NCBI GenBank assembly: GCA_003555075.1
Contig: PWHW01000002.1
Span: forward strand, 96,210 to 160,209
DNA: 64,000 bases
Direction: 5' to 3'
Source of the DNA: Candidatus Nealsonbacteria bacterium
GTDB taxonomy: Bacteria; Patescibacteriota; Minisyncoccia; Minisyncoccales; PWPS01
The translations under genes were made by a program, and so were the position numbers. Shown here piece after piece: positions 2,693-54,712 of the stretch (the first letter of the stretch is position 1; each line of letters opens with the position of its first letter). The notes beneath the pieces were generated by a model. The model worked only from the letters and a program-made list of their open reading frames with translations, was not told where the DNA came from and did not search any database.

Positions 2693-4666
2693 ATGAATTT
2701 TAAGTTGAAGGCGAATTTTGAGCCGGCGGGAGATCAGCCCAAGGCGATAAAAGAGTTAACAAAAAATGTTAGAGAGGGTCTTGATAAGCAGACCCTTCTT
2801 GGGGTTACAGGGTCTGGAAAGACCTATACCATAGCAAAGGTTATTGAGGAGACGCAAAAACCTGCTTTGGTGATAAGTCACAACAAGACCCTTACCGCTC
2901 AATTGTGCAACGAATTCAGACACTTTTTTCCGAATAATTCCGTGCACTATTTTGTCTCTTATTATGACTATTATCAGCCGGAAGCTTACATAAAACAAAC
3001 AGATACTTATATAAGAAAAGAAGCTCTTATCAATGAAGAGATAGATAAGCTTCGTCATGCTGCGACAACAGCTCTTCTAACAAGAAACGATGTGATCATT
3101 GTAGCCTCTGTGTCATGTATATATGACCTGGGGCTTCCTTCTGTTTATGAAAAGAATATTTTTAGAATCAAAAAAGGGGAAGAAAGGACGAGAAGAGAGA
3201 TTATCGAATCTTTGGTAAAAATGCATCTTACCAGAACTCCTTCTGTACTTGAAAGGGGGAGGTTCCGTGTTCAAGGCGACGTATTGCAAATAGCACCGGT
3301 GAATGAGGATATCATTTATCGCGTAGAGCTTTCAGGAGATAGAATTGAGAAGATTTTCGCAATGGATCCCGTAGAGGGTTTTATTCCCGGAGTAACTCCG
3401 GAAACTGAAGAGATCGTGCTTTCCCCCGTAAGACATTTTCTTTCCGAGGAAAGAGGAACGGAGGAGGCTATAAAAAAAATAGAAGAAGAGCTGAAAGAAC
3501 GAATTGCTTACTTTGAAAAGAGAGATATGCCTCTGGAGGCTGAAAGAATAGAGCAGATAACAAGAAATGATATAGCCAGACTAAGGGAGATGGGATATTG
3601 TCATGGAATAGAGAATTATTCTCGCCATCTTTCGGGAAGAGGGGCGGGAGAGTCACCTTCCTCTCTTCTTGATTATTTCAGAGAAGATTTTTTAACGGTA
3701 ATAGACGAATCGCACATTACCATTCCGCAGATCGGGGCTATGTATTACGGTAACAAATCCAGAAAGGAAGCGCTTATCAAGCATGGTTTTCGCCTTCCTT
3801 CGGCAATTGACAACAGGCCTCTTACTTTTCAAGAGTTTGAGGAGAGGGTAAAGCAGGCGATATATGTTTCTGCTACTCCTGCAGAATACGAGAGAGTAAA
3901 TAGCAAGAAGGTTGTAGAGCAGATCATAAGACCTACCGGACTTGTGGATCCCAAGGTTACAATCGCTCCCTGCGAAGGACAGATAAAGGATCTCTTGAGG
4001 AGAATAGATGAAAGGATAGGAAAGAATCAAAGAATACTTGTCACCACTTTAACAAAGAAAATGGCGGAAGATCTAACAGAGTATTTAAAAGAAAGAGATG
4101 TAAAGGTATCTTATATTCATAGTGATATCAAATCTCTTGAAAGAATAAAGATCCTTACTTCTCTAAGAAGAGGAGAGATAGATGTGGTAGTGGGGGTAAA
4201 CCTTTTAAGGGAAGGATTGGATCTTCCGGAGGTTTCTTTGGTAGCTATTTTGGATGCCGACAAAGAAGGTTTTTTGCGCAGCGAGACAGCTTTAATTCAA
4301 ACCATCGGAAGAGCTGCCCGAAACATAGAAGGGGAGGTCTTGGTCTATGCGGATGAGATCACGGGCTCCATAAAGCGTGCGCTGGAAGAAACAGAAAGAA
4401 GGAGAAAGTTACAGATAGATCATAACAAGAAGCACAATATTACTCCTCGGACAATAGAGAAAGAAATAGATGATATTGTTCCCACCAAGGAGGTGCTTGA
4501 GATAGAAACCAAGCCTCTTCCCGAGACCAAGGATGCCATGAAGAAGTTCATCAAAGAAAAGGAGGCGGAGATGAAGAAAGCGGCGAAGGATCTCAATTTT
4601 GAACTTGCAGCTATTTTACGGGATGAAGTAAAAGAATTAAAAAAGGAAATGGATAAGAAAAAATAA
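2693..4666 (+). CDS. uvrB: excinuclease ABC subunit B
   Basis: 657 aa with Walker A 'GVTGSGKT', helicase motifs and a C-terminal UVR coiled-coil ('[16 protein letters not shown]'). Confidence 0.95.
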
Positions 4667-4670
4667 ACGT

Positions 4671-7169
4671 ATGAAGGAAAAAATCTCCATAAAAGGGGCC
4701 AGAGAGCACAACCTAAAAGGGGTGAATGTGGATATACCTCGCAACAAGATGACCGTGTTCACAGGTATTTCCGGTTCGGGAAAGTCATCTCTTGCATTCG
4801 ATACCATATTTTCCGAAGGGCAGAGAAGATACGTGGAGTCATTATCATCTTATGCCAGGCAATTTCTAAGCAAGACAGACAAGCCCGATGTAGACGAGAT
4901 AGAAGGACTTTCTCCTGCTATTTCCATAGATCAAAAGGCCAAATCACACAATCCTCGTTCCACGGTAGCTACCGTAACGGAGGTTTATGATTTCTTGAGA
5001 GTTCTCTTTGCAAGAGTAGGCAAGTCTCATTGCCCAAAGTGCGGAGAAGAGATAAGTTCTCTTGGCGTGGATCAAATAGTAGATCTTATTTTTGACCTCA
5101 AAGAGAAGGAATGTGTGACTGTTCTTTCACCCGTAGTCAGGGGTAGAAAAGGGGAATATTATCAGCTTTTGTATGATCTTTTGAATGACGGATTCAGAAA
5201 AGTACGTATAGATGGAAACTTTTATTCATTAAGAGAAAGAATAGTTATGCCCCGGTACGAAAGACATGATATTTCAGTGGTGGTTGATGAGGTTCCAATG
5301 AATACTTCGGAAAAAGAAGTGAGAATGAGGCTTACTGAAGCAGTGGAGACTGCACTGAACAAGGGTAACGGATTCTTGGAAGTGATCTATGGACAAGGGG
5401 AAAAGCAGTTCTCGGAAAAACTTTCTTGTCCAAAGGATAACTTTTCCTACCCGGAGATAGAACCTCGAATTTTTTCTTTTAATAGTCCTTATGGAGCTTG
5501 CCCCGATTGTAATGGACTTGGAAAAGAAGAGATGTTCTCTGAAAAGCCATGTAATACTTGTAAAGGAAAAAGGCTTCGTGAAGAAGCTTTGCACGTCTTG
5601 ATCGATGGAAAAAGCATAAATGACGTAGTAGAAATGTCCGTCCTGGAAAGTTCCAAGTTCTTTAATGACCTTCAAGGAAAGCTCGATGAGTACGAATCGG
5701 AAGTAGCCGAAGCTCCCTTGAGAGAGATAAGGGATAGAGTGGGTTTTTTGGTAGACATAGGTCTTGACTATCTTACTCTGGGAAGAGCCTCTCACACTCT
5801 TTCCGGAGGAGAAGCTCAGAGAATAAAATTGGCCTCTCAGGTGGGACTTAGGCTTGTAGGAACTCTTTATATTCTTGATGAACCGACGATAGGACTTCAC
5901 CAGGAAGATAACGAACGTCTTGTGAATACTCTCCAGAACCTTCGTGATCTTGGGAATACAATAATTGTGGTAGAGCATGATGAAAAGACCATTTTTTCTT
6001 CGGATTTTTTGGTTGATTTTGGCCCGGGAGCGGGAGTGAACGGAGGCAATATAGTGGCTTCCGGAGAAGTTCCTGATATCATGGAGGATAAATCCCAGAA
6101 CTCGCTCACTCTCCAATATTTACGAGGAGAAAAAGAGATTCCTCTCCCTGATAAGTGGAGGAAAATAAAACCCTCTACTCCTTTTTTAAAGATCAGAGGG
6201 GCCAAGGAAAACAATTTAAAAAATATCAACGTGGATATTCCTTTATCCCGGTTTGTTACGATCACGGGTGTTTCCGGGTCTGGTAAGAGCACTTTGGTGC
6301 ATGATGTTCTCTATAAACACTTGGCTAAAAAAATGAATAGATCAAAATTGGAAGCAGGGGAGTGTAATGCGATCATGGGAACCGAATATGTTGATAAGGT
6401 AATAAACATAAATCAATCTCCCATAGGAAAGACTCCTCGCTCCACCCCGGTTACTTATGTCGGCGCTTTTACAGACATTAGAGAGCTTTTTTCTTACAAT
6501 GAAGAAGCTAAAGTTCGAGGATGGAAGCCCGGAAGATTCAGTTTCAACGTGCCGGGGGGACGTTGCGAGAATTGTAACGGATATGGGTATATTCCCGTGG
6601 AAATGCATTTTCTTCCCACTATTTTTATTACTTGCCAGGTGTGCAAAGGAAAAAGATTTAACAGAGAAACTTTGGAAATAAAGTATCGAGGAAAAAGTAT
6701 ATTCGATGTTCTGAAAATGACGGTGGATGAAGCTCTGGAATTCTTTGAGGATACTCCCTGGATAGAGAAAAAGCTACGTATATTACAGGAGGTGGGGCTT
6801 GGTTATCTTTCATTGGGACAGTCTGCCACCACTCTTTCGGGAGGTGAGGCTCAAAGAGTAAAACTTTCCGCGGAGCTTGCTAAACCCGATACTCGCAATA
6901 CGGTATATATTTTGGACGAACCAACGGTCGGACTTCATTACGAGGATGTGAGAAAACTTATTGATGTACTACAGTTTCTTGTAAATAGGGGGAATACGAT
7001 CATTGTAATTGAGCATCATCTGGATGTAATAAAAAGCTCCGATTATGTCATAGATCTTGGTCCGAAAGGAGGGGAGCAAGGGGGGGAGGTAGTGACCTGC
7101 GGAGATCCTAAAAAAATATCGCGAAAAGCAAGTAGTTTTACGGGAAAACATCTTCGCAAGATTTTGTAG
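4671..7169 (+). CDS. uvrA: excinuclease ABC subunit A (compact, 832 aa)
   Basis: Two ABC ATPase modules ('GISGSGKSS' and 'GVSGSGKST'), two 'LSGGEAQR' signature motifs, and Zn-finger cysteines ([21 protein letters not shown]). It starts 5 nt after the uvrB stop. Confidence 0.93.
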
Positions 7170-17465: not shown

Positions 17466-17622
17466 CAAAAAGATAAAGAAAGTTATAATTGCACTACCAT
17501 ACGATCAAATAGAAATCCGTAGACAGCAGGGACGTAAAGTTTAAAGATCCTGCCGAGGAGATCATCTCTAGCTTTTAGATTTGTTTCCAGCTGTCTGCGT
17601 AAAATTAACGCAGTTTTTTATT
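17466..17622 (+). promoter_or_regulatory. structured 5' leader upstream of rplJ (candidate L10 autoregulatory leader)
   Basis: A 157-nt untranslated region contains the long-range complementarity CGTAGACAGC...GCTGTCTGCG. Confidence 0.35.
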
Positions 17623-18138
17623 ATGGGCACTGTCACCAAAGAAAAGAAAAAAGAAATAATAGAGGATATCCGGAGAATGGCTGCGGATAATGATGGGATA
17701 TTCTTTATAAATTTCAAGGGAGTGAAGGGAGAAGAGATGAGATCCCTCAGGGGTGATATTAAAAAGGGGGAGGCAAGAATAATTGTAGCAAGAAAGACTC
17801 TTGCGAAAATAGCCTTTGAAAAAGAGGGGGTGGAATTTGACCCACTCTCACTTGAAGGAGAAGCAGGGTTTGTGTTTGGAATTCAAGATGGTATTGAGAC
17901 TGCAAAGATTCTTCGCAAGTTCGATAAAGAAGAAACGATCACCATTCTTGGTGGAGTTTATGATGGTAAAGTATTAAGTGCTGAAGAAGTAAGAAGTGTT
18001 GCTGAACTTCCTACGAGGGAAGAACTTCTCTCAAAGTTTTTGGGAACTTTATCTGCTCCCATGGGAGGGTTTGTCAATGCTCTTCAAGGCAATATAAAAG
18101 GTCTTGTAAGTGTTTTGGATCAAAAAGCAAAAGCATAA
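17623..18138 (+). CDS. rplJ: 50S ribosomal protein L10
   Basis: 172 aa 'MGTVTKEKKKEIIEDIRRMAADNDGIFFINFKGV' with an L10-like C-terminal helix. The ORF-track start 17581 was trimmed to ATG 17623. Confidence 0.85.
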   Translation: MGTVTKEKKKEIIEDIRRMAADNDGIFFINFKGVKGEEMRSLRGDIKKGEARIIVARKTLAKIAFEKEGVEFDPLSLEGEAGFVFGIQDGIETAKILRKFDKEETITILGGVYDGKVLSAEEVRSVAELPTREELLSKFLGTLSAPMGGFVNALQGNIKGLVSVLDQKAKA

Positions 18139-41442: not shown

Positions 41443-41519
41443 AAAAGTATTATAAACACGAGAACTCTCGTATATTAGGGTGTTCCTTTAAAAATTAAAG
41501 ATATTAGGAGGTGAAAGGA

Positions 41520-42845
41520 TTGAAAAGATTTTTGCTTGTAATTGGTTTGCTTTTGTTTGCAGGTGTAGCGACACATTTTTACTTCTTTCCTCCTGAGAGG
41601 GAAGTAAAAGATGAAGTTCGAGAAACAAATGAAGAGGAGCTGATCGAAGAGGAAGAAAGTGGAGGGTATGTTACTTTTTGGTTTGATGACGGACTTTTGT
41701 CTACCTATGAAGTTGCATATCCTGCTTTAGAGGAGCGTGGATGGGAGGGTGCGCTTGCAATAGTGGCAGGCAGAGAAATTGCATTAGAAAAATTTGAACC
41801 AGAAGGAGATTCAATAATGAGTTGGGATCAAGTAAGGGAATTAGAAGAAAAAGGATGGGAAATATCGAGTCATTCCATGACTCATACCAATCTCTCAGAA
41901 GTAAGGGATAATGATTCCTTGAAAAAGGAGATTATTACTTCAAAAGAAATTCTTGAAGAAAAAGATTTTGAAGTGAATTCTTTTGTCTTTCCTTACGGAG
42001 ATCCCGGAAATGAAGTGGTTTATGATCTTGTTATGGAAAACTATTCCTATTGGAGATTGACCACCTCAGGTGTAAACTCTGTACCATCGACAAAGCGTTT
42101 AGAAACTCTCTTTTTGACAGAGTGTGCTGACAGAGAAGAAATTGACAAATGGATAGAAAAAACAGAGGAAAAGAGTGGTTGGCTTATTATTGTTTTGCAC
42201 TCTATTCTTGAGGAACCGATTGGTTGGTGGCAGCAAACTCCGGAGCAATTTAATATGGTATTGGAGGCTGTAGAGGAAAGTTCTTTGGAAATTGTTTTGC
42301 CCAAAGATATATTTGAAAAATATGGCTATAAAGAAGATTGCTTGTCAAATGTAGAGATCAATGAAGTTCCCAGAACAGTAATTAGTGAAAGTGATTTTAA
42401 TGATAATCAGGTAGAAATAGTTATTCCTTCAATAAACGTGAGAACTTCTTTAAAGCTTGCTTTCTCAGAAGGGGAGGAAATTGATTTTTCGTATTTAGAT
42501 GATCATCCTGTAATGATCTCGGAGAATGAAAGTCCTTTTCTTAGTTCATTAGGAGAATACGGGACAGGATTGATTCTTTGTCATCGCAATCTCTTTTTTA
42601 GAGAACTTGATAAGCTAGAAAAAGAAGAGGAGTTTATGATCGTGAAAAATGATCGTGAGATTGTTTATGAGGTTTTTGACTCTATAGAAGTTGCTCCCGA
42701 TGATGTTTGGGAGCAAGTAAAGGAGATTCATGAAAAAGGATTAAGTGCGGAGGAGTCCAATGTCATTTTGATGACTTGCACTCCCTACGGACTCGGATGG
42801 GATAGGTTACTTGTTTTCGGAAGAACGGTTGAGAATATGAATTGA
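41520..42845 (+). CDS. fusion protein: N-terminal TM, NodB polysaccharide deacetylase domain, C-terminal sortase-like domain
   Basis: NodB motifs 'VTFWFDDGLLSTYE' and 'SHSMTHTNL'. The C-terminus has sortase-like catalytic motifs 'GLILCHRN' (His), 'NVILMTCTPYG' (L-x-TC Cys) and an Arg 10 residues later ('WDRLLVFGR'). TTG 41520 follows AGGAGGTGA; the ORF-track GTG 41511 abuts the SD. Confidence 0.55.
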   Translation: MKRFLLVIGLLLFAGVATHFYFFPPEREVKDEVRETNEEELIEEEESGGYVTFWFDDGLLSTYEVAYPALEERGWEGALAIVAGREIALEKFEPEGDSIMSWDQVRELEEKGWEISSHSMTHTNLSEVRDNDSLKKEIITSKEILEEKDFEVNSFVFPYGDPGNEVVYDLVMENYSYWRLTTSGVNSVPSTKRLETLFLTECADREEIDKWIEKTEEKSGWLIIVLHSILEEPIGWWQQTPEQFNMVLEAVEESSLEIVLPKDIFEKYGYKEDCLSNVEINEVPRTVISESDFNDNQVEIVIPSINVRTSLKLAFSEGEEIDFSYLDDHPVMISENESPFLSSLGEYGTGLILCHRNLFFRELDKLEKEEEFMIVKNDREIVYEVFDSIEVAPDDVWEQVKEIHEKGLSAEESNVILMTCTPYGLGWDRLLVFGRTVENMN

Positions 42846-42875: not shown

Positions 42876-43949
42876 GTGATATTGGTGGGAGTTTTTGCAA
42901 TACTTCCGGCGCACAATGAGGAGAAAAATATTGGCAATGCTGTTAAAGATCTTTTATTGCAAACAGTTAAAATTGAAAAGATAATTGTAGTGGCTGACAA
43001 TTGTAGCGATGGTACTGTTGAGGAAGTTAAAAGACTTTGCAGTGAATATGCCGATATTGAGCTCATGGAAACGAAAGGGAATCATTACCGTAAAGCAGGA
43101 GCAATAAACATGGCAATAGATGTGATAAGTGATGAAGATTGCGAGTTCTTGCTTGTTATGGACTCCGATTCCAGAGTGGCATTGGATTTGGTGGAAAGAG
43201 CAATGGAATCCTTTGAGAGTGAAGAAAACCTAGGGGGAGTTTGCTCTACTGCACATGTCATTAAACCTCAAAATCTACCTTCTTCTTGGATTAGGAACCT
43301 GGAAGCTCGGTTTATGGGAGCGTTGCAGAGACTTGAATATGCTGGGTTTGATGCCGAAAGAGTTGCGACTTGGAATAATGTAACTATTCTACATGGTTTA
43401 TGTGCAGTTTATAGATTCAAAGCGATAAAGGAAGCAGGAGGATATACTCTCGGACACCTTATAGAGGATTACGATCTTACAGTGAAATTAAAGAAGCTCG
43501 GTTGGCAAGCAAGGTTTAATCCAAAAATGGTTGCTTGGACAGAAGTGCCACTGAGTTTGAAATCTTTTTTCAAACAGCGACTAAGATGGATGAGAGGCGG
43601 GATTGATGTCTTGGTGGATCATGGAATAAACAGGATTACCATAGAGGATGCATTTCATCACTTTCTTTTCATCTGCCTTCTCTTGGCAATATCAGGGTTT
43701 ATAATTCTATCTTTTATTTATCACGGAGAGTGGAGGTTCGGGTTTAATCCTCATCCAATACCTATTCTTGTAGCGATTATTGGCTACCTTATAAGTCTTT
43801 ATAAATTACGCTACTTAAAAGATGCGAGATTTTCGGAGATAATTCTAAGGATTATAATTCTCCCGGAACTCTTAATTGCGATTGCATTAATGGGGGTTCG
43901 AACATATGCGTATTTTCTAGCATTATTCAAATGCTCTCAAGAATGGTAA
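42876..43949 (+). CDS. family 2 glycosyltransferase, processive type (QxxRW), with C-terminal TM helices
   Basis: 'LPAHNEEKNIGNAV...VVADNCSDGT', DxD 'VMDSDS', 'QRLRWMRGG', and three C-terminal TM helices. Confidence 0.75.
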   Translation: MILVGVFAILPAHNEEKNIGNAVKDLLLQTVKIEKIIVVADNCSDGTVEEVKRLCSEYADIELMETKGNHYRKAGAINMAIDVISDEDCEFLLVMDSDSRVALDLVERAMESFESEENLGGVCSTAHVIKPQNLPSSWIRNLEARFMGALQRLEYAGFDAERVATWNNVTILHGLCAVYRFKAIKEAGGYTLGHLIEDYDLTVKLKKLGWQARFNPKMVAWTEVPLSLKSFFKQRLRWMRGGIDVLVDHGINRITIEDAFHHFLFICLLLAISGFIILSFIYHGEWRFGFNPHPIPILVAIIGYLISLYKLRYLKDARFSEIILRIIILPELLIAIALMGVRTYAYFLALFKCSQEW

Positions 43950-43977: not shown

Positions 43978-44136
43978 ATGCCATATGGAGAAGTTGCTTT
44001 ACCGTCTACGGGTGGATTTCTTTTGGGAGGAGCAATTGGACTCTTTTACGATTGGGCCATTGCTATTGTCGTAGTGATTTTAGTTCTTTCATTAATAGGA
44101 GTGTGGAGATTGTATAGAGGTCAAAAAACAATATAA
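43978..44136 (+). CDS. 52-aa micro-protein that is essentially a complete LPXTG sorting signal
   Basis: The ATG sits 8 nt after GAAAGGAGGG. Protein: 'MPYGEVALPSTGGFLLGGAIGLFYDWAIAIVVVILVLSLIGVWRLYRGQKTI'. It has LPSTG, then a ~27-aa hydrophobic segment, then an R/K tail. Not in the ORF track (<60 aa). Confidence 0.5.
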   Translation: MPYGEVALPSTGGFLLGGAIGLFYDWAIAIVVVILVLSLIGVWRLYRGQKTI

Positions 44137-44163
44137 CACACCCTAAAAGTTCTTTCTTAAATA

Positions 44164-44191
44164 ACACGTCTTAAATTAGACGTGTTTTTTT
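44164..44191 (+). terminator. rho-independent terminator
   Basis: ACACGTCT-TAAATT-AGACGTGT followed by TTTTTTT. Confidence 0.7.
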
Positions 44192-44212: not shown

Positions 44213-44240
44213 TTGACATTTTTTTCATTTGACGTAGAAT
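44213..44240 (+). promoter_or_regulatory. sigma70-like promoter
   Basis: TTGACA-N16-TAGAAT. Confidence 0.5.
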
Positions 44241-44299: not shown

Positions 44300-44845
44300 T
44301 TGAAAAAAATTTTAGAATGGATGGTCACAGGAATTCTGATTTTAGCGATCTTTCTTTTTATTTTTATGTTCATCGGCCCTAGGTTTGGCTGGGAAACCCA
44401 CCCTGTTCTTTCCGGTTCTATGGAGCCGGCCTTGGAGGTGGGGGGAATAATTGTTACTAAGCCTGAAAAGTTGGAAAATATTCAAAAAGGGGATATTATT
44501 ACGTTCCAAACAGAAGGGCCAAAAGTAACGCACCGTATAGTGGACATAAAAGAAATTGAAGGTGAACGATGGTTTCAAACCAAAGGAGACGCTAATAAGG
44601 AACCCGATCGTGACCTTGTCTCTTCTCAAGGAGATGTGATGAGAAAGGTCTTTCTCTACCTTCCTTATTTGGGCTTTGCCGCTCAATTTATGCAAAGCAA
44701 ATGGGCTTTCATTGTTCTTGTCGGAATTCCTTCTGTTATTTTAATAGGATGGCTTGGCAAGGATGTTTGGGAAGGAATTGAAGAAGAGAGAAGGAAAAAG
44801 AGGAAAAAAGAAGAGAATGAGGAAGATCGCAAGGAAGGAGAGTGA
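44300..44845 (+). CDS. SipW-type (ER/archaeal-type) signal peptidase I
   Basis: TTG start. TM followed by 'VLSGSMEPALEVGGIIV' (catalytic Ser), 'THRIV' and 'TKGDAN'. A C-terminal TM and a K/E tail. Confidence 0.7.
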   Translation: MKKILEWMVTGILILAIFLFIFMFIGPRFGWETHPVLSGSMEPALEVGGIIVTKPEKLENIQKGDIITFQTEGPKVTHRIVDIKEIEGERWFQTKGDANKEPDRDLVSSQGDVMRKVFLYLPYLGFAAQFMQSKWAFIVLVGIPSVILIGWLGKDVWEGIEEERRKKRKKEENEEDRKEGE

Positions 44846-44972
44846 TTTCCATCTATCGTTTTTATTACTAGTGATTGCACTTTTAAAAAGAGATAAGAGG
44901 TGTTGAGCTTAAAATTACTTCTTTGGATGTTTTACAATAATATGACTCCAAAGGAGAGAAAGGAGGAGTCAA

Positions 44973-45638
44973 TTGAAAAAAGTACTAGCTTTTTTCTTGG
45001 TACTTGCAATGAGTGTTGGCTTAGTTGGGGCAGGAACCACAGCATATTTTACTGACACTGAAGAATCTAGCAGTAATTCTTTTACGGCCGGAGTGTGGGA
45101 AACTGAGCAAGAAGAAGAAATTGAAGAAGATCTGATGATGCTTGAAGAGGAAACAGTTCAAGAAAGTGTTTATGATGAAAAGGAAGAACTTGACAACCCT
45201 GAAGAGTCCGGTAATGACGAGGGCACCGAAGGAGAGAACGACGAAGAAACCGAAAGTGATGATCCTGAAGGCGAAGAAACTAACGGTGAGGAACCGGAGA
45301 ATGAAGAATCCGAGGCTTCCGAAGAAGAATCAGGAGAAAATGATGTTTCTTGTGATTCTGACGATGAAGAATGCTCCGATGATGAAGAATCTATGAATGG
45401 TGATCCCGAAGATCCTCAGGACTCTGAAGACGGGGAATCCCAAGAAGAAGAAAGCGTATCAGACGAAGAAGAGAGCGGTGCTGATGAGTGCGTGGAAGAG
45501 GAAGATGAAGAGTCCGGTAATGACGAGGGCACCGAAGAAGAGAGCGACGAAGAAACCGAAAGTGATGATTCTGAAGGCGAAGAAACTAACGGTGAGGAAC
45601 CGGAGAGTGAAGAATCCGAAGCTTCCGGAGAAGAATAG
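44973..45638 (+). CDS. SipW-cognate-signal-peptide protein with a polyacidic tandem-repeat tail
   Basis: TTG start. 'AMSVGLVGAGTTAYFTDTEESSSNSFTAG' is the TasA/camelysin-class signal motif. The remaining ~175 aa is E/D/S-rich and contains two ~41-aa repeats (nt 45205-45330 and 45512-45636). Confidence 0.6.
   Translation: MKKVLAFFLVLAMSVGLVGAGTTAYFTDTEESSSNSFTAGVWETEQEEEIEEDLMMLEEETVQESVYDEKEELDNPEESGNDEGTEGENDEETESDDPEGEETNGEEPENEESEASEEESGENDVSCDSDDEECSDDEESMNGDPEDPQDSEDGESQEEESVSDEEESGADECVEEEDEESGNDEGTEEESDEETESDDSEGEETNGEEPESEESEASGEE
45205..45636 (+). repeat. two ~125-nt direct repeats inside the acidic-protein CDS
   Basis: tccggtaatgacgagggcaccgaag...gaagaaactaacggtgaggaaccggag occurs at 45205 and 45512, ~90% identical and frame-preserving. 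Confidence 0.7.
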
Positions 45639-45795: not shown

Positions 45796-46404
45796 ATGAA
45801 AAAGAAGTTAGTTTTTAGTTTGTTGGCTCTTATGTTGGTGGTTGGACTTGTTGGAGCAGGTTCGTTTGCGGTTTTCAGTGATACGGAGAAAAGCGAGGAA
45901 AATGTTTTCCAAGCCGGAACGTTGGAGCTTGACGTGGAAGGTGCAGATGAAGGAGTTACGACATACAGTTTTGAAAACATCAAGCCCGGTGATATCGGTG
46001 GCTGGGATGGTCTTCACGACAATCCGCAATGGATTACTGAAAGGCCGCAGTGGACAGTTAAAAACACAGGTTCACTTCCGGGTGAGCTGACCGTCACTAT
46101 TGAGAATATTCGAGACTATGATGAAAATGACAACCAAATCGACACTGCAGACGGAGCGTTGTCATGGGCAATAGATATATGGTTTAAGGGTGGTGGCAGC
46201 AACTTCTGGGGACATCTTGGCAGGGGAGAACCAGCTCTTGTGATAGACTTAGATCCCGGTGATGAGATTACTGTGCAGTGTCAGTGGCAACTAGGCAGTG
46301 AGCCGAATGATGGCTGGAATGTTTTGCAAGGACATAGTACCGAATTTGACGTGAGGTTCTACCTGGAACAAACAGAAGAACCAACGGCGGATGTTTCACC
46401 ATAA
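45796..46404 (+). CDS. TasA/camelysin-family (Peptidase_M73-like) secreted protein with SipW-cognate signal peptide
   Basis: 'LMLVVGLVGAGSFAVFSDTEKSEENVFQAGTLELDV', 'FENIKPGD', 'WTVKNTGSLPGELTV'. These parallel Bacillus TasA 'AAFNDIKSKDATFASGTLDL', 'NLKPGD' and 'FQFENNGSL'. Confidence 0.7.
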   Translation: MKKKLVFSLLALMLVVGLVGAGSFAVFSDTEKSEENVFQAGTLELDVEGADEGVTTYSFENIKPGDIGGWDGLHDNPQWITERPQWTVKNTGSLPGELTVTIENIRDYDENDNQIDTADGALSWAIDIWFKGGGSNFWGHLGRGEPALVIDLDPGDEITVQCQWQLGSEPNDGWNVLQGHSTEFDVRFYLEQTEEPTADVSP

Positions 46405-46576
46405 CACAACTTACTAATAGTCAAATTTTTGAGCAACAACTCTCTTATCTCTTTCTTCAAAGCCCGAGTTATTAAACCAAACTCGGGCTTTTTTTCTTGA
46501 CAATCCACTGATTGATGATATGGTATAAAAAATTCGTTTGTTCTCTTAAAAAAATATAAGAAAGGAGGAAAAGAAA

Positions 46577-47026
46577 GTGAAAAAAGTTTTGATCAATTTC
46601 TTTGGAGTTTTTTTATTACTTTTTTTGGTGGCAATAAGTGTTCATATAATATTTTTCAAAACTCCCGAGGTAAATATCGGAATACCCGAAAGCGCAATAT
46701 TTGATTTAGAGGAAGACGGCCATTGGTACCCCGGAAAGAGAGTAGAGAAGAAAGTGGAAATAGAGAATGCCGGAAACGTGCCTGTAAAGGTGTCCTTTTT
46801 TGCTGTTCAAAAAGAGAGCAGCCCCTTAAGAGTGAGCTTTCAGCTGCCGGAAAAAGATGGGCGCAAGATTGATCCCGGAGAAAACAAGGAGGTTTTGGTC
46901 AGAGCTTATATGCCGGCTGAAACCGGAAATGCTTTTCAAGGAGAAAGATGGAAAAAGGATTTCATTTTTCGTGCCAACAAGCAAGGTGTTTTCAAAGAGC
47001 AGGATCTTTTAAAAAGGAGGTGGTGA
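46577..47026 (+). CDS. hypothetical secreted protein, possibly a divergent TasA-like domain
   Basis: GTG start after AAGGAGG. N-terminal TM. 'KKVEIENAGNVPVKVSFFAV' resembles the TasA 'FQFENNGSL' strand region. Confidence 0.35.
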   Translation: MKKVLINFFGVFLLLFLVAISVHIIFFKTPEVNIGIPESAIFDLEEDGHWYPGKRVEKKVEIENAGNVPVKVSFFAVQKESSPLRVSFQLPEKDGRKIDPGENKEVLVRAYMPAETGNAFQGERWKKDFIFRANKQGVFKEQDLLKRRW

Positions 47027-51328: not shown

Positions 51329-52843
51329 ATGAGTAAAAGAGTTATTATCATTATCATAGTAGTTGTTTTGGTGGGAATCGGAGTAATGATGAGTTTTAAG
51401 TTTGATTTTGGCATGGATTTAAAGGAAGAGAATGATGAACCTTACATTTCCGGAGAAATATGCTTAGTATCCGATGATAATGTTCTTCTGGCTGAAGAGA
51501 TCGATGCGGAAGAGTGTACGGGAGATCTAAATGAACTTAAAGGAAGTGCGGGATATTTCAGGGTGGACGAAGAGACGAAAATAATAGGAAAAGAAGGAAA
51601 GGAGATCCCATTTGATGAGTTGATGCCCGGAAATCAGGCAAAGATATGGACTGTTGGGCCCATTATGGAAAGTTATCCTGTTCAAGCCAGTGCTTCCAAG
51701 ATAGAACTTTTGGAAGAAGGAGAAGAGCTTGAAGCGGAAGGGTCTAAAGAGGAAAAGGATGACAAAGAGAAGGAAAGAAATAATGAGTGGTCATACAATG
51801 AAGAGCTTGGAGGGGATCTGAAGGAAGTTAAAGGTCAGATCACGGAGTGCCTGTACTCTGTAAAAGGTGTGCCATCTCCAAAAGGAGTTTCTTTCTCTCC
51901 CGACGAAGAGGAGTTTTGGGTAACTTCTTTAATGAATGAATCCGAGGGAGTGGTGGTGTTTGAAAGAAAAACAGGAAAGAAGAAGGAGGGTATGACTTTG
52001 CCCGGGGGAGGGGGAGTGGAGATTATTTTTGATCAGAGTGGCTCCTATGCTTTTGTTAGTCAAATGGAGACGGGGAGGGTGTTCATGATTGATGCGGACA
52101 AGAAGAAGATCGTTGAAACTTTTGACACGGAAGGAAGCTGGACGAAAGTCATGGATCTTTCTCCGGATGAGGAGACCATTTATGCTTCGAATTGGTCAAG
52201 TCACAACGTTTCGGCGATCGATCTTGGATCGGGAAAAGTGACTGATCTTCTCAGTGCCGTGAACACTCCGCGAGGTATTTATGCTACGGAAGACGGTAGT
52301 GAGCTTTATGTTGCAGGATTTGAAAAAGGAGAAATACAAAGGATAAATTTGCACACGAAAGAAAGCGAGGTGATATATGAAAGCGGAGGTTCAATGAGAC
52401 ACATTGTGGGCGATGAGAAAAATGAAACCCTTTATTTTTCCGATATGGGGAATGCGGCTATTTATGAGTTTGACAAGGAGGATGAAGAAGTAAGAAAGTT
52501 TGCGGATACCGAAAGAAACCCTAACACCATAGCCCTCAGTCCCGACAACAAGGTTCTTGCGGTATCAAACAGAGGAGCTAACCATCCTTCGGGAAACTAT
52601 AATATTCCCGGACCGGAGTGGGGAAGTGTTCTTTTTTTTGACACCTCGACCGGAGAAGCGGTTGATGCTATTTTGGGAGGAAATCAACCTACGGCACTTG
52701 ATATATCAGAAAGCGGGAAATACTTGGCATTCTCCAACTTTTTGGATGGCGAGATAAATATTTGCAAATTTCCCGAAACAAAAGATATGCTGGAAGGTGA
52801 AGGAGGAGGATTTCCGGGGTACAAAGAAAAGATCGCAAAATAA
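51329..52843 (+). CDS. YVTN-family beta-propeller repeat protein, membrane-anchored/secreted
   Basis: N-terminal TM. Repeated ~40-aa YVTN-like units ('YASNWSSHNVSAIDLGSGKV', 'LYVAGFEKGEIQRINLHT', 'LAVSNRGANHPSG'). Confidence 0.6.
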   Translation: MSKRVIIIIIVVVLVGIGVMMSFKFDFGMDLKEENDEPYISGEICLVSDDNVLLAEEIDAEECTGDLNELKGSAGYFRVDEETKIIGKEGKEIPFDELMPGNQAKIWTVGPIMESYPVQASASKIELLEEGEELEAEGSKEEKDDKEKERNNEWSYNEELGGDLKEVKGQITECLYSVKGVPSPKGVSFSPDEEEFWVTSLMNESEGVVVFERKTGKKKEGMTLPGGGGVEIIFDQSGSYAFVSQMETGRVFMIDADKKKIVETFDTEGSWTKVMDLSPDEETIYASNWSSHNVSAIDLGSGKVTDLLSAVNTPRGIYATEDGSELYVAGFEKGEIQRINLHTKESEVIYESGGSMRHIVGDEKNETLYFSDMGNAAIYEFDKEDEEVRKFADTERNPNTIALSPDNKVLAVSNRGANHPSGNYNIPGPEWGSVLFFDTSTGEAVDAILGGNQPTALDISESGKYLAFSNFLDGEINICKFPETKDMLEGEGGGFPGYKEKIAK

Positions 52844-52882: not shown

Positions 52883-54214
52883 ATGCGTGGTATAAGTATA
52901 AAAGATGAAAACTCGATACCTCTCGTGATATTGGTCACAGTTGTGATACTTTTAGGCGTTTTATGGGTATTGATACAGCTGGATGTCGATATAGACATGG
53001 GTCAAGTGGTGCCTTTCATGAGAGGAGAGGTGGTTCCCGACTATGCAAAAGAAGGGCTGGCGGATGCCGAAGGAGTAACTCTGGAAGGGATGCGAAGTGT
53101 TGAAAAAGCAAGTAGTAAGTTCGCGTTTGATGTTTACGAGGAACTTGCAAAAGAAGAGGGTAATATAGTTTTTTCTCCTTACGGCGTCTCTACTGTGCTT
53201 TCTATGACCTACGAAGGGTCCAAGGGGGATACAAAAGAGGAAATAGGGGAGGCGATCAACATTCCAAGAGAAGATGATGTTCGCAGACCGGCGATGGGTG
53301 CTGTTTATAACAAAATAAATCGCGAGGATGCCGGCTATGATATTGAGACCCTCAATTCAGTTTGGATCCGGGAAAATTATGAGCCATTTTCCGATTTTAT
53401 TGATGTAATTGAAAGGTTTTACGTAGGGCAAGTCAATAGTGTTGACCTTGAGGATGATCCCGAAAACACGAGGGCAAGCATGAATGAGAAGGTTAAAGAT
53501 ATCACGGGAGATATTATAGAAGAGCTTTTTCCTCGCGGATCGGTAGCCGATAAGACTACGATGATGTTGGCAAATGCGGTTCATTTTGACGGTAACTGGG
53601 AGATCGAATTCAACAAAGAGCATACAGAAAAGGAAGATTTTCATATTACCGAAGAGGAAACTTTGGAGGTTGCAATGATGCAAGGCGAAGGAGAATATGG
53701 ATATTATGAAAATGAGGAAGCTCAAATTCTTGAACTCTCATATGAGGATAAAAACGCTTCAATGCTTGTTATTCTTCCCAAAGAAGGGAATCTTGCATCT
53801 CTTGAGAACGAACTTGATTTTGAAAAGATGAATGAATGGAAAGAAGGAATTGAAGAAGAGAAAGTGAGGGTATATCTTCCTCGGTTTAAAATTGGAATGA
53901 GACACAAAATGAGCGATCATCTTAAGAATCTGGGAGTGCTTCTTGCGTTTGACAGGGAAGAAGCGGATTTTTCAAATATCTTTGAGCAAGAAGAAGAGAA
54001 TCTGTTTCTTGATGAGATTATTCATGGTGCTTTCATCTCTGTTAACGAGAAAGAGGCAGAAATACTCGAAGAAACGGAAGAGGAAGAAACAGAGGAGGAA
54101 AAAGAAGAAGATATGATGGTTTTCAGAGCGGATAATCCTTTTATTTTCACTGTCATTGAAAAGGAGGGTGGAAACATTATTCTCATGGGAAGAGTGCAAA
54201 ATCCTTTAGAGTAG
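52883..54214 (+). CDS. serpin-family protein with a poly-Glu reactive-centre-loop hinge
   Basis: 'NIVFSPYGVSTVLSMTYEGSKG', 'NAVHFDGNWEIEF', C-terminal 'FRADNPFIFTVIE' (compare FxADHPFLF). The hinge 'EKEAEILEETEEEETEEEKEED' replaces the usual GTEAAAAT. Confidence 0.8.
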   Translation: MRGISIKDENSIPLVILVTVVILLGVLWVLIQLDVDIDMGQVVPFMRGEVVPDYAKEGLADAEGVTLEGMRSVEKASSKFAFDVYEELAKEEGNIVFSPYGVSTVLSMTYEGSKGDTKEEIGEAINIPREDDVRRPAMGAVYNKINREDAGYDIETLNSVWIRENYEPFSDFIDVIERFYVGQVNSVDLEDDPENTRASMNEKVKDITGDIIEELFPRGSVADKTTMMLANAVHFDGNWEIEFNKEHTEKEDFHITEEETLEVAMMQGEGEYGYYENEEAQILELSYEDKNASMLVILPKEGNLASLENELDFEKMNEWKEGIEEEKVRVYLPRFKIGMRHKMSDHLKNLGVLLAFDREEADFSNIFEQEEENLFLDEIIHGAFISVNEKEAEILEETEEEETEEEKEEDMMVFRADNPFIFTVIEKEGGNIILMGRVQNPLE

Positions 54215-54283: not shown

Positions 54284-54712
54284 TTAGCTATACCTTGCTT
54301 TTTTTGCTTTCTCCTCTCTGTTTTGTAGTTCAACGAGACGTTCTCTCTGATCCGAAGTGAGCTCTCCATCCATTTGTGCTATTCTCAGGCTATTCAATTC
54401 TTTTTGCTCCTCCGCGGGCAAAAGAGCATTTTTTTCGTCAAACCCTTTTCCCTTCTCTTCGAGCCCTTCTTTTTCTCTTGAGAGATTCTTATACCTCTCT
54501 TCCTCTTCTTCATTTAAGACATCCTCTCCTTCTTTTACTCTTTCTTCTTTTGCCTGAAGCTCAAGAAGGCGCTCTCTTTGCTCCGAAGAAAGCTCTCCTT
54601 CCACTTGTGCAATTCTCAGGCTATTCAATTCTTTTTGCTCCTCCGCGGGCAAAAGAGCATTTTTTTCGTCGAATTCCTCGTTTCTATTGGGAGTTTCAAA
54701 GCTTTCTCTCAT
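54284..54712 (-). CDS. hypothetical coiled-coil protein with a 2x tandem ~37-aa repeat
   Basis: 'FDEKNALLPAEEQKELNSLRIAQ[VM][ED]GEL[ST]S[ED]QRERL[LV]ELQ' occurs twice (DNA repeats ~54340-54440 and ~54560-54690). No clear SD sequence. Confidence 0.45.
   Translation of the reverse strand: MRESFETPNRNEEFDEKNALLPAEEQKELNSLRIAQVEGELSSEQRERLLELQAKEERVKEGEDVLNEEEEERYKNLSREKEGLEEKGKGFDEKNALLPAEEQKELNSLRIAQMDGELTSDQRERLVELQNREEKAKKARYS

Follow-up and report, generated by a model that had tools for sequence, protein, structure and literature searches.

A SipW-signal protein with a repeated polyacidic tail, encoded between sipW and a TasA-like gene in a Candidatus Nealsonbacteria bacterium

We identified an open reading frame (ORF) for an extremely acidic, putatively secreted protein in a stretch of 64,000 nucleotides (nt) from contig PWHW01000002.1 (positions 96,210 to 160,209 of the forward strand) of the GenBank assembly GCA_003555075.1, which belongs to a Candidatus Nealsonbacteria bacterium. 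This whole stretch is referred to as the window, and coordinates are counted from its first letter. The ORF, here called the acidic gene, lies between sipW, which encodes a signal peptidase, and the gene for a TasA-like protein. Its product consists of a predicted signal peptide, a short segment that resembles the donor strand of TasA, a linker, and a tail built from a tandem unit of 306 nt. The features of the acidic gene are as follows.

44961–44966, + strand: Shine-Dalgarno sequence AGGAGG, read directly from the sequence, 6 nt 5' of the TTG start
44973–45638, + strand: whole ORF of the polyacidic SipW-signal protein, TTG start, 221 amino acids (aa) plus stop
44973–45044, + strand: predicted signal peptide, residues 1–24, placed by a TIGR04088 match to residues 9–42 and by alignment to the TasA-like neighbour
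45045–45098, + strand: donor-strand-like segment, residues 25–42, YFTDTEESSSNSFTAGVW, placed by homology to TasA beta0 and the F-x-A/S-G motif, with a TapA-type 'AG-x-W' at its end
45099–45199, + strand: unique acidic linker, approximately residues 43–76, with one low-confidence predicted helix (residues 47–57)
45200–45505, + strand: one full tandem unit, 306 nt or 102 aa
45506–45636, + strand: terminal partial unit of 131 nt, corresponding to the head of the full unit, with the stop codon directly after it

The N-terminus matches TIGR04088, the model for SipW-dependent signals, with 41.5 bits (curated cut-off 19 bits), and residues 9–42 align to profile positions 2–34 of 34. By the two criteria of this model, the score and a nearby SipW gene, the acidic protein is a SipW-dependent-signal protein, its cleavage and export themselves being predicted. 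Residues 1–41 share 59% identity with the N-terminus of the TasA-like neighbour, including the F-x-D and F-x-A-G positions. Y25-F26-T27-D28 aligns with V-F-S-D in the neighbour and with A28-F29-N30-D31 in TasA, and the mature TasA of Bacillus subtilis (chain 8AUR) begins with the residues AFND. The cleavage site carried over from this alignment would fall after Ala24, between GTTA and YFTD. The predicted mature start, YFTDTEESSSNSFTAG, would then correspond to TasA residues 28–42, with Phe26 in the place of TasA Phe29. In the same alignment the acidic protein has the conserved aromatic residue at mature position 2 of an N-terminal donor strand (beta0).

The resemblance to TasA ends shortly after this segment. 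Against PF12389, the TasA/camelysin family, the acidic protein scores 21.9 bits (gathering score 22.5), and because the match is confined to profile positions 5–46 of 196 the protein lacks the TasA body. No such body was found with the Pfam profile, in the structure prediction by AlphaFold2 (AF2), or in the exhaustive protein search described below. Past the 'AG' the sequence departs from the TasA pattern, continuing with V-W-E, compared with T-L-D-L as the commonest continuation among the 136 SipW-signal proteins that we collected. An earlier note on this DNA, made from the letters alone, had described a SipW/TasA-class signal followed by no TasA body, and both statements are borne out by the SipW-aware model and by these searches.

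From residue 30 onward the protein is 51% Asp and Glu, 14% Ser and only 8% hydrophobic, with a single Lys and a calculated charge of approximately −97 at pH 7. Each 102-aa unit of the tail contains three Cys. The 44 other ORFs of at least 200 aa in the window have a median Asp+Glu content of 15%, and the median isoelectric point of the window's ORFs is 7.2. The extreme acidity is therefore not a general trait of the proteome, and an overall acidic proteome was rejected as an explanation for the window. AF2 gave no fold and no strands for the acidic protein (mean predicted local distance difference test, pLDDT, 51; predicted template modelling score, pTM, 0.16), and predicted only two helices, that of the signal and a short one at residues 47–57. 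The tail is thus predicted to be disordered, although a run on a single sequence is weak evidence for disorder. We found no LPXTG motif, membrane helix or wall-binding domain that could serve as an anchor; the C-terminus reads ...ESEASGEE, and the protein does not have the LPXTG, hydrophobic segment and basic tail of a sortase substrate.

The tail is repetitive at the nucleotide level. Two 131-nt copies (45200–45330 and 45506–45636) are 95% identical and lie 306 nt apart, which is far beyond chance. They are not adjacent in the window; each forms the head of a 306-nt tandem unit, and the two units follow one another. The earlier note was thus right about a polyacidic mature part that bears repeats. 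Its repeats of about 41 aa, encoded by direct repeats of about 125 nt, correspond to the duplicated copies, whereas the actual unit is 102 aa or 306 nt.

Copy number, which the note had proposed to compare in related genomes, differs by one unit between assemblies. The window contains 1.43 units and L002, a Joint Genome Institute (JGI) contig from soda-lake sediment that is 99.9% identical to the window, contains 2.43 (two full units and the 131-nt partial). The gene product of L002 is 323 aa, exactly 102 aa longer. Relative to L002 the window form is an exact deletion of one 306-nt unit, whose length is divisible by three, so that the reading frame is kept. A look-up of the exact 221-aa product in the assembly collection gave no record, so the short form is known from the window only. 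The two full units of L002, A1 and A2, are 98% identical to each other, and five of their six differences are non-synonymous (Pro/Ser, Asn/Ser, Glu/Gly, Asp/Glu); only the composition of the units looks conserved.

The single full unit of the window resembles A1 at five sites (unit positions 65–223) and A2 at position 301, and the 77 bases between positions 223 and 301 are identical between the units. Given A1-like sites followed by an A2-like site across identical bases, the unit would be either an A1/A2 recombinant that arose by unequal crossover or an assembly collapse in which the assembler jumped within the 77-nt stretch. Three other assemblies break inside the repeat. In GCA_003552105.1, a metagenome-assembled genome (MAG) at NCBI, the acidic gene is split between two contigs. 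One of these (L006) matches the window at 100% identity and ends at unit position 214, just 5' of a site that differs between units. The other (L003) begins at unit position 220, includes an A2-type unit missing from the window, and agrees with the window without mismatch 3' of the repeat. In addition, two Logan contigs start within the terminal partial unit.

We give even odds to the proposal that copy number is in fact fixed at 2.43 units or more and that the 1.43-unit form of the window is an assembly collapse corresponding to no real allele. The chimeric unit, with its switch in a stretch that is identical between units, is what a collapse would leave; however, unequal crossover in the same 77 nt would yield an identical sequence. 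The best-matching MAG contigs end and begin within the repeat, the A2-type unit of one of them is lacking in the window, and the starts of the two Logan contigs also fit a collapse. However, the 2.43-unit contig represents a strain that is slightly different, as its SipW differs from that of the window by one residue (this 99%-identical SipW, P0010, was traced only to the JGI contig). Across the assemblies, the variants at unit position 223 occur in all four combinations with those at position 301, which fits real recombination between units as well as assembly chimeras. The proposal concerns the length claim only. A length-variable repeat, as the earlier note suggested, is consistent with assemblies that differ by one 306-nt unit, but the short form may be a collapse, and variability is supported between assemblies only (221 compared with 323 aa). 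The repeat itself is real and reproducible, and it is a place where short-read assemblies fail.

The acidic gene lies in a cluster of genes on the same strand. The features of the cluster are as follows.

41511–42845, + strand: polysaccharide deacetylase-sortase fusion (PF01522 at residues 50–172, PF04203 at residues 305–439)
42876–43949, + strand: PgaC/IcaA-like synthase of glycosyltransferase family 2 (GT2), TIGR03937 107.8 bits, below the equivalog cut-off
43978–44136, + strand: 52-aa membrane protein
44163–44186: terminator-like hairpin closing the upstream unit
44213–44240, + strand: sigma-70-like promoter TTGACA-16-TAGAAT (11/12), 5' of sipW
44300–44845, + strand: SipW-type (archaeal/endoplasmic reticulum-type) signal peptidase I, 181 aa; TIGR02228 106.9 bits (cut-off 51.85), PF10502, and 118.5 bits with NF046067, the Bacillus SipW model, whose equivalog cut-off of 190 lies above this score
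45643–45671, + strand: sigma-70-like promoter TTGACA-17-TATACT with TG (11/12), 5 nt past the stop of the acidic gene, the TasA-like gene's own
45796–46404, + strand: TasA/camelysin-family protein with a SipW signal, 202 aa; PF12389 42.8 bits, TIGR04088 37.1 bits
46577–47026, + strand: protein of 149 aa that combines a membrane helix at the N-terminus with a stretch at the C-terminus (L.PGe...NAFQGERWKKDFIFRA) like the TasA C-terminal motif

The acidic gene starts 127 nt past the end of sipW, on the same strand, and is followed after 158 nt by the TasA-like gene. Between the sipW promoter and the stop of the acidic gene no terminator-like site was found; sipW is therefore probably co-transcribed with the acidic gene, and the TasA-like gene is probably driven separately. 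These transcripts were assigned from matches to promoter and terminator consensus sequences.

The family profile of the TasA-like protein, compared with the PDB, finds B. subtilis TasA as its two best matches (8AUR, the fibre, and 5OF1, the monomer; E = 2e-5). The alignment is full-length: it begins with AFND at the mature N-terminus, includes the 'KPGD' loop and reaches the 'N..QG...F.F...Q' motif at the C-terminus. AF2 predicts a beta-sandwich for it (pLDDT 75.7). We presume that this protein is the subunit of a fibre and the acceptor of donor strands. No surviving out-of-frame sorting signal was found downstream of its gene.

The gene for the 149-aa protein has its own promoter-like site (46497–46524). 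Its product matches the TasA-like profile in hhalign at E = 0.0015 with a probability of only 17%, and scores 20.1 bits against TIGR04090, far under the cut-off. It is possible that this protein is a membrane-anchored base of the fibre that only accepts strands, and we assign it to the system tentatively.

Given the deacetylase-sortase, GT2 synthase and membrane protein genes that lie upstream, the neighbourhood has the gene content of a matrix or envelope island. The layout of the GT2 synthase and the 52-aa membrane protein recalls the small PgaD/IcaD partners of poly-N-acetylglucosamine (PNAG) synthases. The GT2 gene, the 52-aa gene and the deacetylase suggest a module for a PNAG-like exopolysaccharide beside the fibre genes. 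No sortase substrate of the LPXTG type was identified among the ORFs of the 64-kb window, and for this reason anchoring of the acidic protein or its neighbour by the sortase domain was dropped.

A word-indexed homology search with the whole acidic protein gave no match. When 1.84 billion representative proteins were searched exhaustively with phmmer, 25 matched at E ≤ 1e-3, almost all of them on residues 1–45 only, and nearly all of the 25 are ordinary TasA-like proteins. With matches confined to the N-terminal region, the tail is an orphan. To compare SipW-signal proteins more widely, we gathered 160 loci from genomes and metagenomes through relatives of SipW, and these contain 136 distinct SipW-signal proteins. 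Their mature parts are mostly 9–25% Asp+Glu, with a maximum of 29%, and their bodies are a median 29% hydrophobic. Compared with them the acidic protein is an extreme outlier in composition. Among partial SipW relatives are sequences named Nealsonbacteria and Paceibacterota, and the names of the soda-lake contigs give hypersaline soda-lake sediment as their source. The closest related loci are L088 and L168, with SipW proteins 60% identical to that of the window. The TasA-like protein of L088 (1268–2005) carries a C-terminal LPFTG, a membrane helix and a basic tail.

The residues that follow the F-x-A-G motif recall those of TapA-type accessory proteins. The motif 'FTAGVWE' is identical in two proteins, P0141 and P0142, and P0141 contains a TapA domain (TIGR04087, 64.8 bits). 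A Trp two residues past F-x-A-G occurs in only 4 of the 136 SipW-signal proteins, and the TasA C-terminal motif is missing from all four. They comprise a TapA (L073, 81 bits) and three unannotated, body-less, low-complexity proteins whose genes lie directly beside sipW: two of the latter occupy the tapA position upstream of sipW in a Thermoanaerobacteraceae MAG (L009) and a Bacillota MAG (L011), and the third is encoded downstream of sipW on a metagenome contig (L141). The acidic protein itself has no match to TIGR04087 at E ≤ 0.01, compared with 126, 81 and 64.8 bits for the positive controls L035, L073 and P0141. The first of these controls, from Fervidibacillus halotolerans, is a bona fide TapA that ends in a polyacidic tail of approximately 100 aa.

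The three body-less proteins share with the acidic protein a signal-like hydrophobic stretch, the pattern x-F-x-D...F-Q-A-G/A-x-W, a low-complexity remainder (5–11% hydrophobic) and an adjacent sipW. They differ in that their tails are not homologous to the Glu/Asp/Ser-rich tail, their signals score under the TIGR04088 cut-off or go undetected, L009 and L011 are 5' of sipW, and L141 is in frame with SipW. The L009 and L011 proteins (4112–4894 and 3846–4898, both + strand) have 'GGFSDT...FQAG(T/V)WG' past the hydrophobic stretch and continue with a Gly-rich or a Gly/Asp/Glu/Pro-rich sequence. Both contain the motif 'VYDGAAENAAL' and lie upstream of TasA-like genes as well, and neither matches an NCBIfam family. 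The L141 contig has a high GC content, and its ORF (174–1373, + strand) encodes a SipW domain followed by a second, in-frame hydrophobic segment, 'TIAYFNDIERSVGNLFQAGEWED' and a Pro/Glu-rich tail, and may be either a fusion of SipW with its substrate or a case of an in-frame internal start.

TasA polymerises by donor-strand exchange, in which residues 28–38 form the donor strand that is inserted in the next subunit (PMC9674648). The N-terminus of TapA resembles this strand and has been modelled in the groove of TasA, and a fraction of the N-terminal residues suffices (PMC9674648). TapA starts filaments by strand complementation, with Phe29 as the key conserved contact, and is unable to sit inside filaments because its own fold is complete (PMC10151520). 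In Bacillus cereus, the protein CapP (BC1280) has a C-domain of 15 perfect tandem repeats that is predicted to be disordered and modulates the polymerisation of CalY (10.1101/2024.02.27.582368).

Judged by its domains, the acidic protein is not a member of the TasA/camelysin family, as it has no body, nor of TapA, as it has no immunoglobulin (Ig) domain, nor of CapP, to which it has no homology. It is homologous to the TasA/camelysin family (PF12389) over its signal peptide, in the predicted context of cleavage and for approximately the first 18 mature residues. However, it is without the beta-sandwich, the 'KPGD' loop and the C-terminal 'N..QG...F.F...Q', and in the absence of this body and its motifs it would have no accepting groove and would be unable to polymerise.

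The acidic protein probably works like TapA. Both are processed by SipW (predicted here) and encoded beside sipW and a TasA-family gene, and both have an N-terminus like the donor strand of TasA, which for TapA is the proposed first strand donated to a TasA subunit (PMC9674648, PMC10151520). Neither has a place inside the fibre, and the C-terminus is flexible in both, being polyacidic over its last 100 aa or so in the TapA of F. halotolerans. The 'AG-x-W' signature is common to the acidic protein and to the TapA-domain proteins P0141 and L073. The differences are that the acidic protein has no central Ig-like domain, that its gene is 3' and not 5' of sipW, and that its tail makes up a far larger share of the protein, is far more acidic and contains a 102-aa tandem unit. 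In addition, the host is probably a bacterium of the candidate phyla radiation and no Bacillus. CapP is likewise an accessory protein processed by SipW, and its gene lies between sipW-tasA and a second fibre gene, calY (10.1101/2024.02.27.582368). However, CapP has a structured, oligomerising N-domain (residues 39–190), and its repeats are short, with 15 copies in approximately 89 residues. Neither this domain nor the repeats show homology to the acidic tail in the search of 1.84 billion proteins, and the likeness is one of architecture only.

Based on the retained strand, the TapA-type signature, the position of the gene between sipW and the fibre gene, and the absence of an acceptor fold, we propose that the acidic protein starts or caps the neighbouring TasA-like fibre as a minimal protein of the TapA kind, with its body reduced to a polyanionic, disordered tail. 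We assign this reading a probability of about 45%; the evidence for it is gene order, analogy and a homologous stretch of 18 residues. These first residues of the mature protein with 'AG-x-W', which the earlier note had missed, point to a role at the end of a TasA-like fibre. The adjacent SipW peptidase would cleave the protein after Ala24. The mature protein would then begin with a TasA/TapA-type donor strand of approximately 18 residues, followed by approximately 180 residues of polyanion in place of a beta-sandwich. The strand would enter the open groove of the first subunit in the fibre formed by the TasA-like protein (45796–46404), and since the acidic protein has no groove of its own it would sit at one end of the fibre only, as an initiator or a cap. 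More speculatively, the tail would form a charged, hydrated brush that holds cations, repels hydroxide, or ties the fibre to polymers of the envelope or matrix. Gain or loss of whole 306-nt units would change the length of the tail and keep the frame.

Several observations weigh against this proposal. The conserved residues after the cleavage site could serve recognition by SipW only. In L088 and L168 the acidic gene is missing, and sipW is followed directly by a TasA-like gene with LPFTG. Beyond approximately residue 70 no match was found at E ≤ 1e-3 among the 1.84 billion representative proteins. The mostly non-synonymous differences between the units give no sign of purifying selection on their sequence, and GAA-rich sequence easily stays open in the frame of the acidic ORF, so that the length of the ORF is by itself weak evidence for a gene.

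A somewhat unlikely alternative is that the acidic protein is a free or envelope-associated polyanion, exported by SipW and acting alone, in which the residues after the cleavage site serve SipW recognition only. It could be a protein equivalent of the acidic polymers in alkaliphile walls, a reservoir or buffer of cations, a hydration layer, or a partner of the polysaccharide made by the GT2 and deacetylase proteins. Soda lakes reach up to pH 11, are low in Ca and Mg, and are rich in bacteria of the candidate phyla radiation such as 'Ca. Nealsonbacteria', and at high pH Gram-positive cells are protected by acidic polymers on their surface (PMC6146748). By analogy with these polymers, it is plausible under the TapA-like reading too that the tail is a charged brush that retains cations, provides hydration or repels hydroxide. 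The earlier note had suggested a Ca2+/metal-binding matrix component or a charged spacer. Binding of Ca2+ by the tail is less obvious, given how little Ca and Mg soda lakes contain, and this weakens one form of the alternative (PMC6146748). The extreme composition of the tail, the hypersaline source and the place of the gene inside a matrix or exopolysaccharide locus all suit a polyanion that acts alone, and the TIGR04088 model extends past the cleavage site in every SipW substrate. However, such a role leaves unexplained both the TapA-type 'AG-x-W' and the position of the gene between sipW and the TasA-like gene, and a protein associated with the envelope would have none of the anchoring devices that were sought. 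Binding of the tail to a partly deacetylated, cationic PNAG was also considered as a role. Glucosamine amines should be largely uncharged at the pH of a soda lake, and electrostatic binding of this kind was for that reason rated weak.

We give little weight to the last alternative, a young orphan ORF or decaying remnant in which a partial 5' duplication of the TasA-like gene ran into an expanded GAA-rich repeat with no selected function: the orphan tail, the absence of the gene from the nearest related loci, the mostly non-synonymous unit differences and the ORFs of 77–87 aa in other frames of the region are consistent with it, but the gene has a strong Shine-Dalgarno sequence, an intact, high-scoring signal peptide, no internal stops (the two remaining forward frames have 7 and 38), an intact ORF in every independent assembly that covers it, a copy-number change that is an exact multiple of three, and body-less analogues beside sipW in three other lineages. 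Scans with Rfam and for tRNA genes found no match at the locus. Considering these features, the acidic protein is very probably a real secreted protein.

Elsewhere in the window, two 116-nt segments (54324–54439 and 54555–54670) were noticed as cross-matches when related contigs were compared with the window. They are 88.8% identical and lie in a 142-aa ORF (54284–54712, − strand) that has no family match; the segments point to an internal duplication. The window also encodes a serpin-family protein (52883–54214, + strand; PF00079, 443 aa) with 23% Asp+Glu, adjoined by a 504-aa beta-propeller/Vgb-lyase-like protein (51329–52843, + strand) that was recognized from precomputed Pfam marks on an identical contig. 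Small-genome bacteria seldom encode serpins. The housekeeping context of the window includes a ribosomal protein L10 leader (17499–17629, + strand; Rfam 57.2 bits, gathering score 44) and six tRNA genes (Tyr, Thr, Trp, Val, Glu and Gln).

A broader idea, which we consider unlikely at present, is that SipW/TasA systems in several unrelated lineages use a hitherto unrecognised class of minimal TapA proteins, each a bare F-x-A-G-x-W strand with a fast-evolving, low-complexity tail, that start or cap the fibre with an end chemistry specific to the lineage. In such a class the chemistry of the protein described here would be a polyanion of approximately −100 to −150 charges with a length that varies by copy number. 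The fibre of this locus might in that case be complete in three parts: a donor-only tip (44973–45638), a polymerising subunit (45796–46404), and a membrane-anchored, acceptor-only base (46577–47026). What would be new is a body-less accessory protein with a donor strand and a tail whose length differs between assemblies, with convergent-looking counterparts in three lineages.

If the TapA-like reading is not confirmed, the acidic gene is an orphan low-complexity ORF of one population and of limited interest, although it still marks a site where short-read assemblies break or collapse. Work in B. subtilis suggests that the N-terminal strand of TapA alone starts TasA fibres. If this is true, the acidic gene would be a natural minimal construct, and three further lineages have apparently reached similar designs. 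Confirmation would mean that the two jobs of the accessory protein are separable, with a conserved strand that starts the fibre and a freely evolving tail that sets what the end of the fibre binds or carries. It would also extend the biology of donor-strand fibres to the little-known cell surfaces of the candidate phyla radiation, in an extreme habitat at high pH and high salt.

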